Positions 43,083-44,009 of a stretch of DNA of 64,000 nucleotides are shown piece after piece. Position numbers and translations under genes: made by a program. The notes below the pieces were generated by a model. That model saw nothing but the letters and a program-made list of their open reading frames with translations. It was not told where the DNA came from and did not search any database. Within the stretch, counting starts at the first letter, position 1. Every line of letters starts with the position of its first letter. The stretch is from NCBI RefSeq assembly GCF_003334305.1, contig NZ_QOWS01000022.1; one strand, written 5' to 3'. Origin of the DNA: Escherichia coli (lineage in GTDB: Bacteria > Pseudomonadota > Gammaproteobacteria > Enterobacterales > Enterobacteriaceae).

Positions 43083-44009
43083 ATGGCTACTTTAATGGAA
43101 AAAGATGCACTTTTAAACGGAGCCAGTCAGTGCATCGCGTTTTTATCAAATATCATTGATAATTGCTCAGTTTCGTCGCATCAGGATTCAGGCGATGCTC
43201 TCAAGCGATTAGTCAGCTATCGCGATTATCTTTATTCTACCCCCGCTGAACTTGTTGATTTTACACAAGGTAAGATTCTCCTTCAGCAGGTAAGAACTCA
43301 ATATCAGCATGAATTCAACAATACTACGCATTCAGAAAATAAAGCATCTTTTGATTCTATTTGGCAGCGTCTGACAAATCATGAAGTCACACCGCAACAG
43401 CATCCCATTGGTTTTGTTTTAGGTGGGCAACCCGGAGCAGGTAAATCATCTCTGATTGAATTAGCCAAAAGAGAGACAAAAGATAATATAATGATTATTA
43501 ACGGTGATGATTTTCGATTTCTACACCCTGATTTTAATTATATCTACCAAAATTATGGGGATGATTTTGTTACCCATACAGCGAAATTTTCCGGCGAAAC
43601 GGTCGAACGTGCAATTGAGAGAGCGATAGTCAGTAAACTCAACATTGTTGTCGAAGGAACATTTCGTAATGCCGCGACGCCGTTACAAACATTAAAAAAA
43701 CTCAAAGATGCAGGCTACCAAACAGAAGTCATGATAAAAACAACCTCAGCGGCATTAAGCTGGGAAAGCACCAATGAACGGTATAGTAAGGACAAAGAGG
43801 CGGGAAATATTGCCCGAAAAGTGGATAAAAACCACCATGATATCGTCACCGGTTTGCTGGCAGAAAATGCCCGCAAGGTGTTTGCTTCGAACCTGTCAGA
43901 TAAGTTTGCGGTGTATTCGCGTGAGAAGATGATATTTAGTTCACAAGCGGCAACGAATGACGATATTGCAACGCTTATACAGAATGAAATCAGCGGGAAT
44001 ACACAATAA
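43083..44009 (+). CDS. zeta-toxin-like P-loop kinase with ~100 aa N-terminal extension
   Basis: Walker A GFVLGGQPGAGKSS as in zeta/PezT UNAG kinases, followed by D-x-x-R-type region INGDDFRF; ATG at 43083 with AGGAG 5 nt upstream (track ORF starts at GTG 43077); GC content clearly below flanking core genes. Confidence 0.7.
   Translation: MATLMEKDALLNGASQCIAFLSNIIDNCSVSSHQDSGDALKRLVSYRDYLYSTPAELVDFTQGKILLQQVRTQYQHEFNNTTHSENKASFDSIWQRLTNHEVTPQQHPIGFVLGGQPGAGKSSLIELAKRETKDNIMIINGDDFRFLHPDFNYIYQNYGDDFVTHTAKFSGETVERAIERAIVSKLNIVVEGTFRNAATPLQTLKKLKDAGYQTEVMIKTTSAALSWESTNERYSKDKEAGNIARKVDKNHHDIVTGLLAENARKVFASNLSDKFAVYSREKMIFSSQAATNDDIATLIQNEISGNTQ

Follow-up and report, generated by a model that had tools for sequence, protein, structure and literature searches.

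The ezeT islet next to lysC

The window considered here, a stretch of 64,000 nucleotides from an Escherichia coli chromosome (RefSeq assembly GCF_003334305.1, contig NZ_QOWS01000022.1), carries the gene order pgi, lysC, islet, yjbD, rluF, pepE and yjbB, and it is the 3.4-kb islet (3,430 bp, positions 42939-46368) that I will discuss. In a BLAST comparison, the homology with E. coli K-12 MG1655 extends as far as the lysC stop codon (42938) and restarts at 46369, the islet standing in for ~122 bp of the K-12 lysC-yjbD spacer. Three genes lie within it: ezeT on the plus strand (43083-44009) and, on the minus strand, the genes for an RlaP-type nucleotidyltransferase (NTase) of 263 aa (44045-44836; Pfam RlaP PF10127) and for an SPFH/Band_7 protein of 375 aa (44842-45969), the latter two taken from RefSeq and Pfam. 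The first-pass annotation of this DNA had described ezeT as AT-rich and convergent with the SPFH/NTase operon, and both descriptions hold, with 40.5% GC in the gene vs. 50.4% in the window (50-54% in its neighbours, 50-52% in the SPFH/NTase genes) and 35 nt between the two converging stop codons.

The reading frame of ezeT begins with the ATG at 43083 and ends with the stop codon at 44007-44009, encoding 308 aa, and RefSeq gives the identical 927-nt CDS as the list of open reading frames, under the label "zeta toxin family protein" and the accession WP_000212693.1, to which the translation is identical in 308/308 residues. Two extra in-frame TAA codons directly follow the stop, and an in-frame GTG at 43077 yields the 310-aa form of EzeT seen in some older annotations. 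A 2023 review names WP_000212693.1 as EzeT, a "dual TA", the link between name and accession standing in one figure legend, and also reports that lysC adjoins EzeT in E. coli B1 strains (PMC10532202); another review places EzeT in a 3.4-kb islet (PMC5812544). Because the protein identity is 100% and the islet is the lysC-adjacent one of 3.4 kb, the sequence identifies the gene in the window as EzeT of E. coli in its published place, a gene that was previously characterised (Rocker and Meinhart, 2015, Mol Microbiol 97:589) and is not new. The first reading had thought of a single-chain zeta toxin of the EzeT type whose antitoxin domain acts in cis; this protein is EzeT itself. No difference was found between the two, which are alike in their 308-aa sequence, the lysC islet, the two-domain layout and a promoter candidate made of a -10 element only; the window holds a copy of that gene from a further strain of its lineage. 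Reviews cite EzeT, whose description and tests date from 2015, as the first auto-inhibited single-chain toxin-antitoxin module. In a protein collection clustered at 90% identity, EzeT was grouped with LysC proteins under a representative of 449 aa, which looks like a clustering artefact.

The candidate ezeT promoter is a perfect TATAAT -10 hexamer at 43046-43051 on the plus strand, read by eye and with no recognisable -35 element, and it is followed by a Shine-Dalgarno sequence, AGGAG (43073-43077, plus strand), 5 nt before the ATG. A scan for the two-hexamer promoter consensus upstream of ezeT returned nothing, the counts being not above those in shuffled sequence. This agrees with a review of Rocker and Meinhart (2015), which in its account of the gene describes a weak promoter with a -10 hexamer and no -35 element, and we infer that transcription may start from this hexamer. 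Just past lysC, in a part of the islet that is absent from K-12, lies a perfect 11-bp hairpin without a T-run after it (42950-42982, plus strand), probably a 3' structure of lysC, in which the divergent allele L019 shows one compensatory change (A-T to G-C). At the other end of the gene, where ezeT and the RlaP gene converge, folding gives a GC-rich hairpin, CGCCGGGC-TTTAT-GCCCGGCG (44036-44056); the 66-nt stretch that contains it folds with -20 kcal/mol (z -2.3), and the hairpin is likely a terminator.

The 151-nt leader of ezeT folds with a z of -5.0, and within it a 9-bp perfect inverted repeat, CACTCCTGT / ACAGGAGTG, occupies positions 43027-43035 and 43071-43079, so placed that in lysC read-through transcripts it could hide the Shine-Dalgarno of ezeT. 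This anti-Shine-Dalgarno pairing is noted as an observation only, since the sole substitution in it among the alleles is uncompensated and the likely start of transcription is downstream of it. Compared with the divergent loci L018 and L019, the lysC-ezeT leader (42936-43090) is much better conserved, with a mean column identity of 97%, than the ezeT coding sequence, which is 87-90% identical; the leader diverges in step with lysC, which points to a recombination boundary close to the ezeT start.

Searches of the islet for RNA genes gave only the lysine riboswitch upstream of lysC in Rfam, the rest being chance matches below threshold, and ARAGORN gave no tRNA. Within the islet's right-hand 400 bp, GGGAATCGAACCC at 46144-46156 resembles the complement of a tRNA T-arm and, going by this resemblance, may be an integration-site relic. 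Two PHROGs profiles, phrog_25145 and phrog_14344, cover 43083-44836, matching EzeT over its full length (E 2e-188) and the RlaP NTase (E 1e-123); a phage origin of EzeT was considered on this account and rejected, the profiles being judged the likely product of prophage predictions that overran into the islet.

A zeta-type kinase with a fused inhibitor

Residues 83-308 (43329-44006, plus strand) form a zeta/PezT-type UDP-N-acetylglucosamine (UNAG) kinase, or toxin, domain, delimited from Pfam, PDB matches and an AlphaFold2 model. Pfam Zeta_toxin PF06414 covers residues 101-282 (E 1.8e-40), and the sequence matches PezT (2p5t, E 5e-33) and zeta (1gvn, E 5e-27) in the PDB, a similarity that is far above chance, and by profile as well as by fold EzeT belongs to the zeta toxin superfamily PF06414. 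Against the PezT equivalog profile NCBIfam NF041574 it scores 130.2 bits vs. a cut-off of 470 bits, and by this measure EzeT is a homologue of PezT and not an equivalog. The Walker A motif, or P-loop, that the first reading had quoted, GGQPGAGKSS, spans residues 114-123 (43422-43451, plus strand), with K121 in the place of zeta K46, and the downstream Asp and Arg motifs that it mentioned are present as well. Alignment places D142 (codon 43506-43508, plus strand), within INGDDFR, opposite zeta Asp67 and PezT Asp66; E191, T193 and R195, within EGTFR (43653-43667, plus strand), opposite zeta E116, T118 and R120 of the zeta-specific GTXR substrate-binding motif; R233 and R245 (in 43779-43817, plus strand) opposite zeta R158 and R171; and E175 and T203 opposite zeta E100 and T128. 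A lack of conserved catalytic Asp and Arg residues would have spoken against the assignment; K121, D142, E191, T193, R195, R233 and R245 are invariant among 39 homologues. The aspartate at this position is reportedly catalytic in both zeta and PezT, and the P-loop lysine, the GTXR motif that binds the substrate and the two arginines are likewise assigned roles in zeta, reportedly by Meinhart (2003) and Mutschler et al. (2011).

The AlphaFold2 model of EzeT, built on an alignment of 39 sequences (pLDDT 90.4, pTM 0.89), has a three-helix N-terminal domain followed by the kinase, and its kinase domain fits zeta 1gvn_B with an rmsd of 2.0 Å over 221 alignment columns. PezAT of Streptococcus pneumoniae (2p5t) and epsilon/zeta of pSM19035 (1gvn, 3q8x) are among the closest known systems: their kinases share the fold to within ~2 Å, together with the Walker A motif, the catalytic Asp, GTXR and both arginines, they use UNAG as substrate according to the literature, and a helical antitoxin keeps them off. 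However, in both of these systems the antitoxin is a separate gene product, whereas in EzeT it is an N-terminal fusion, and EzeT, unlike them, is chromosomal in a Gram-negative host and comes without omega or an HTH repressor.

The N-terminal domain comprises residues 1-82 (43083-43328, plus strand), the boundary at 82/83 being that of the EzeT(1-82) and deltaN83 constructs as given in reviews of Rocker and Meinhart (2015). The model places high-confidence helices at residues 4-27, 30-52 and 60-73, a linker to the kinase at residues 81-90 has a mean pLDDT of 62, and the alignment with PezT starts at residue 80. The first-pass annotation was right about an N-terminal extension and overestimated its length, which is ~75-82 aa and not ~100 aa. 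Three kinds of search gave no support for homology of the N-domain to epsilon or PezA: a Pfam scan of the N-domain family gave no match, including to Epsilon_antitox PF08998; a profile search of the PDB gave no sequence match to epsilon or PezA; and Foldseek with the isolated N-domain model gave non-specific matches to three-helix bundles, with epsilon (1gvn_A) at E 3.5. To speak of "epsilon-like" inhibition by this domain is therefore to use an analogy. In the 144-nt gap between the lysC stop (42938) and ezeT there is no credible antitoxin ORF on the plus strand, the single plus-strand ORF of at least 20 aa that touches the gap being an out-of-frame one of 37 aa that starts inside lysC, and the earlier statement that a small upstream epsilon-type antitoxin gene is missing stands. 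The locus thus departs from the canonical two-gene layout of epsilon/zeta and PezAT, with a separate antitoxin that carries PF08998 or, as PezA, an HTH.

For the activity of the protein I draw on four reviews of Rocker and Meinhart (2015), two of which either come from the authors or cite them, and on what these accounts relay of the original experiments. According to them (PMC4803016; PMC4826407; PMC10532202; PMC5812544), full-length EzeT is harmless and yields no UNAG-3P; deltaN83 lowers viability, permeabilises and lyses the cells and leads to the accumulation of UNAG-3P; separately expressed EzeT(1-82) neutralises deltaN83 in trans; and the toxicity of deltaN83 appears only below about 30 °C. 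Phosphorylation of UNAG by EzeT in vitro is reported as well (PMC5812544 and another of the reviews). The comparison of full-length and truncated protein for toxicity and UNAG-3P that the first reading had proposed was therefore already available in published work, as reviewed, and its outcome, a truncated kinase that is toxic and active, is the opposite of the one that would have counted against the proposal.

Taken together with the domain layout, I consider it highly probable that EzeT is a type II toxin-antitoxin module whose two parts have become a single polypeptide, a UNAG kinase with a cis-acting N-terminal antitoxin. In this module, residues 83-308 work as a zeta/PezT-type P-loop kinase that uses ATP to phosphorylate UNAG, the UNAG-3P formed is unusable for peptidoglycan synthesis, and the weakened cell wall ends in lysis. 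Residues 1-82, a three-helix domain tethered to the kinase, keep it almost inactive in cis, presumably by steric means as one may reason by analogy with epsilon/zeta, and toxicity requires removal or displacement of the N-domain.

Split relatives and a probable origin by fusion

Among the homologues collected, the N-domain is confined to proteins from Escherichia and a few from metagenomes, together with an orthologue in Pseudocitrobacter (59% identical). The nearest other kinases, ~45% identical and found in Neisseria, Pasteurella and Haemophilus, start at the kinase core, and in the four split loci examined (4/4) an ORF of 73-81 aa ends 0-9 nt before the kinase gene. These small upstream proteins align with EzeT residues 1-75, with invariant M1, M5, K7, D8, L10, A19, R47, L50 and Y51; BLASTP of EzeT 1-92 against the small protein of N. 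wadsworthii gives E 4e-8, and the independent profile phrog_25145 gives 1e-8. The free-standing antitoxin ORFs lie at 3753-3998 of locus L010, 3738-3998 of L011, 2253-2492 of L012, 2252-2491 of L014 and 2283-2504 of L016.

The two-gene modules of Neisseria, Pasteurella, Haemophilus and mobile elements (e.g., N. wadsworthii CP059565.1, L010) are among the closest known systems as well, with a kinase that is closer to EzeT than PezT or zeta are and a small protein that shares with EzeT 1-75 the pattern M-x-T-L-M-x-K-D-x-L and, later, R-x-x-L-Y. They differ in that antitoxin and toxin genes are separate, where EzeT is fused, in a C-terminal tail of 70-120 aa on the kinase (A1 columns ~320-480; P0100, P0124 and P0131) that EzeT does not have, and in their location on plasmids or integrative elements beside ParA, resolvase, TrbI or ArdC genes. 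That EzeT originated by fusion of a two-gene operon was previously suggested, in the wording of one review, and since its N-domain is homologous to the free-standing antitoxins of two-gene relatives, the comparison of sequences supports the view that the two genes of an antitoxin-toxin pair fused to give EzeT.

How common the domain is became apparent when its profile was searched against 1.84 billion representative proteins, which yielded 209 clusters at 50% identity (E up to 0.001); among the best 150 of the 209 clusters, 138 have at most 130 aa (median 77 aa) and 8 have 300-400 aa, and in each of these 8 long proteins the N-domain is followed by a kinase-like region. On this evidence the N-domain represents a putative antitoxin family that is uncatalogued, having no Pfam entry, and mostly free-standing at ~77 aa. 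Fused antitoxin-kinase proteins seen in the collection are P0147, P0160, P0161, P0176, P0208, P0223, P0251, P0268 and P0133 (from locus L009), and the Walker A motif of P0176 is degenerate (LEGQPGSEKSE). In a crude neighbour-joining tree of the kinase domains, drawn without support values, fused and split forms are interleaved, a hint that fusion or fission happened more than once among these proteins. The gene in the window itself adds nothing new to the literature, and it is the split/fused antitoxin family that is the addition made here, a modest lead, with natural split and fused pairs that are usable for testing how cis-inhibition evolved and should be of use to those working on zeta toxins.

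Distribution, selection and other readings of the locus

The gene is present in 1434 of 5426 complete E. coli genomes, as a single copy and always on the chromosome. Two records labelled as plasmids and carrying EzeT in full length had raised the prospect of a plasmid-borne EzeT, which was rejected, for these E. coli records, of 1.0 Mb and 4.8 Mb, are mislabelled chromosomes. Other Escherichia lineages have divergent ezeT alleles (87-90% identical in DNA) at this locus, with all three genes together. Between alleles (dS 0.2-1.1) the N-domain has a dN/dS of 0.13-0.26 and the kinase one of 0.08-0.16, with non-synonymous change ~4 times faster in the N-domain than in the kinase. Since dN/dS is well below 1 in both, both domains of EzeT have evidently been maintained by purifying selection.

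A self-inhibited UNAG kinase is not the only way in which these data could be read, and one might ask whether the kinase acts on another substrate, either a broader range of UDP-sugars as with gonococcal ng_zeta1 or NAD as with AvrRxo1, in which case poisoning of the cell wall would not be the real action of EzeT. Kinases of the zeta family do vary in substrate (PMC5923241; PMC10532202), and both ng_zeta1 and AvrRxo1 are found among the distant fold matches of the EzeT model. However, the best Foldseek matches by far are zeta and PezT (rmsd ~2 Å, E ~1e-13 vs. 4e-4 for AvrRxo1 and 1.5e-3 for ng_zeta1), every UNAG-contacting residue of zeta is kept in register in EzeT, and the reviews, as far as their accounts go, report UNAG-3P accumulation and UNAG phosphorylation in vitro for EzeT itself, all of which leaves a different substrate hardly credible. 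It is very improbable, too, that ezeT and its convergent neighbours, SPFH/Band_7 and RlaP, work as a unit of three genes with EzeT as the effector of the whole islet, and equally hard to believe that the membrane scaffold and the NTase would release EzeT from its cis-autoinhibition on sensing stress at the envelope or from phage, possibly in the cold. Such a unit would have the attraction of supplying EzeT with a natural trigger; the three genes do share a single 3.4-kb islet that K-12 lacks, the whole of it is found in 1425 of the 1434 ezeT-bearing E. coli genomes, and the divergent Escherichia alleles keep all three genes. But the GC content of ezeT is about ten points below that of its SPFH/NTase neighbours, the convergent orientation means that they are not co-transcribed with it, and the SPFH/RlaP pair is present in 1632 genomes, ~200 more than ezeT, with a phage-tail cluster instead of ezeT in the three such loci examined. 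Moreover, in Pseudocitrobacter the orthologue is found at an unrelated locus that has no SPFH/RlaP genes, the split relatives on mobile elements also lack them, and PADLOC gave no significant defence-system match for EzeT, RlaP or SPFH, its sole match being a weak one to PDC-M04B (E 8e-4, 46 residues, no single stretch passing by itself). The GC gap, the convergence, SPFH/RlaP without ezeT, the Pseudocitrobacter locus and the PADLOC result argue that ezeT is separable cargo.

Selection on both domains speaks against the remaining proposal, that ezeT is a decaying orphan remnant whose toxin was permanently silenced by the fused antitoxin and is now drifting to loss. Purifying selection over a dS of 0.2-1.1, invariant catalytic residues, the fact that 1371 of 1434 copies are full length and at least 99% identical, and the enzymatic activity of truncated EzeT that a review reports are difficult to reconcile with such drift, which I regard as extremely unlikely even though the gene is absent from ~74% of complete E. 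coli genomes and even though its promoter is described as weak and its toxin as non-functional at 37 °C in the review literature drawn upon. Pseudogenised alleles exist at the same locus, at 4001-5447 of locus L003 and 3001-3929 of L017, one of them cut by IS1 and the other frameshifted; they fit the notion of decay and they do imply that ezeT is dispensable.

The place of ezeT beside RlaP and SPFH can be filled in another way. In the three E. coli loci examined, L002 (1-2987, strain IR53017), L021 (1-3487, ApSLC23) and L022 (1-3482, CS6L), it is taken by a cluster of phage-tail genes (baseplate, tail protein I, tail fibre and DUF4376), and the slot by lysC is accordingly a variable hot spot. 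Elsewhere in the window, other stretches of low GC content (32-38%) lie at 6001-7000, 14001-15000, 23001-24000 and 55001-57000, and these may be further horizontally acquired islets.
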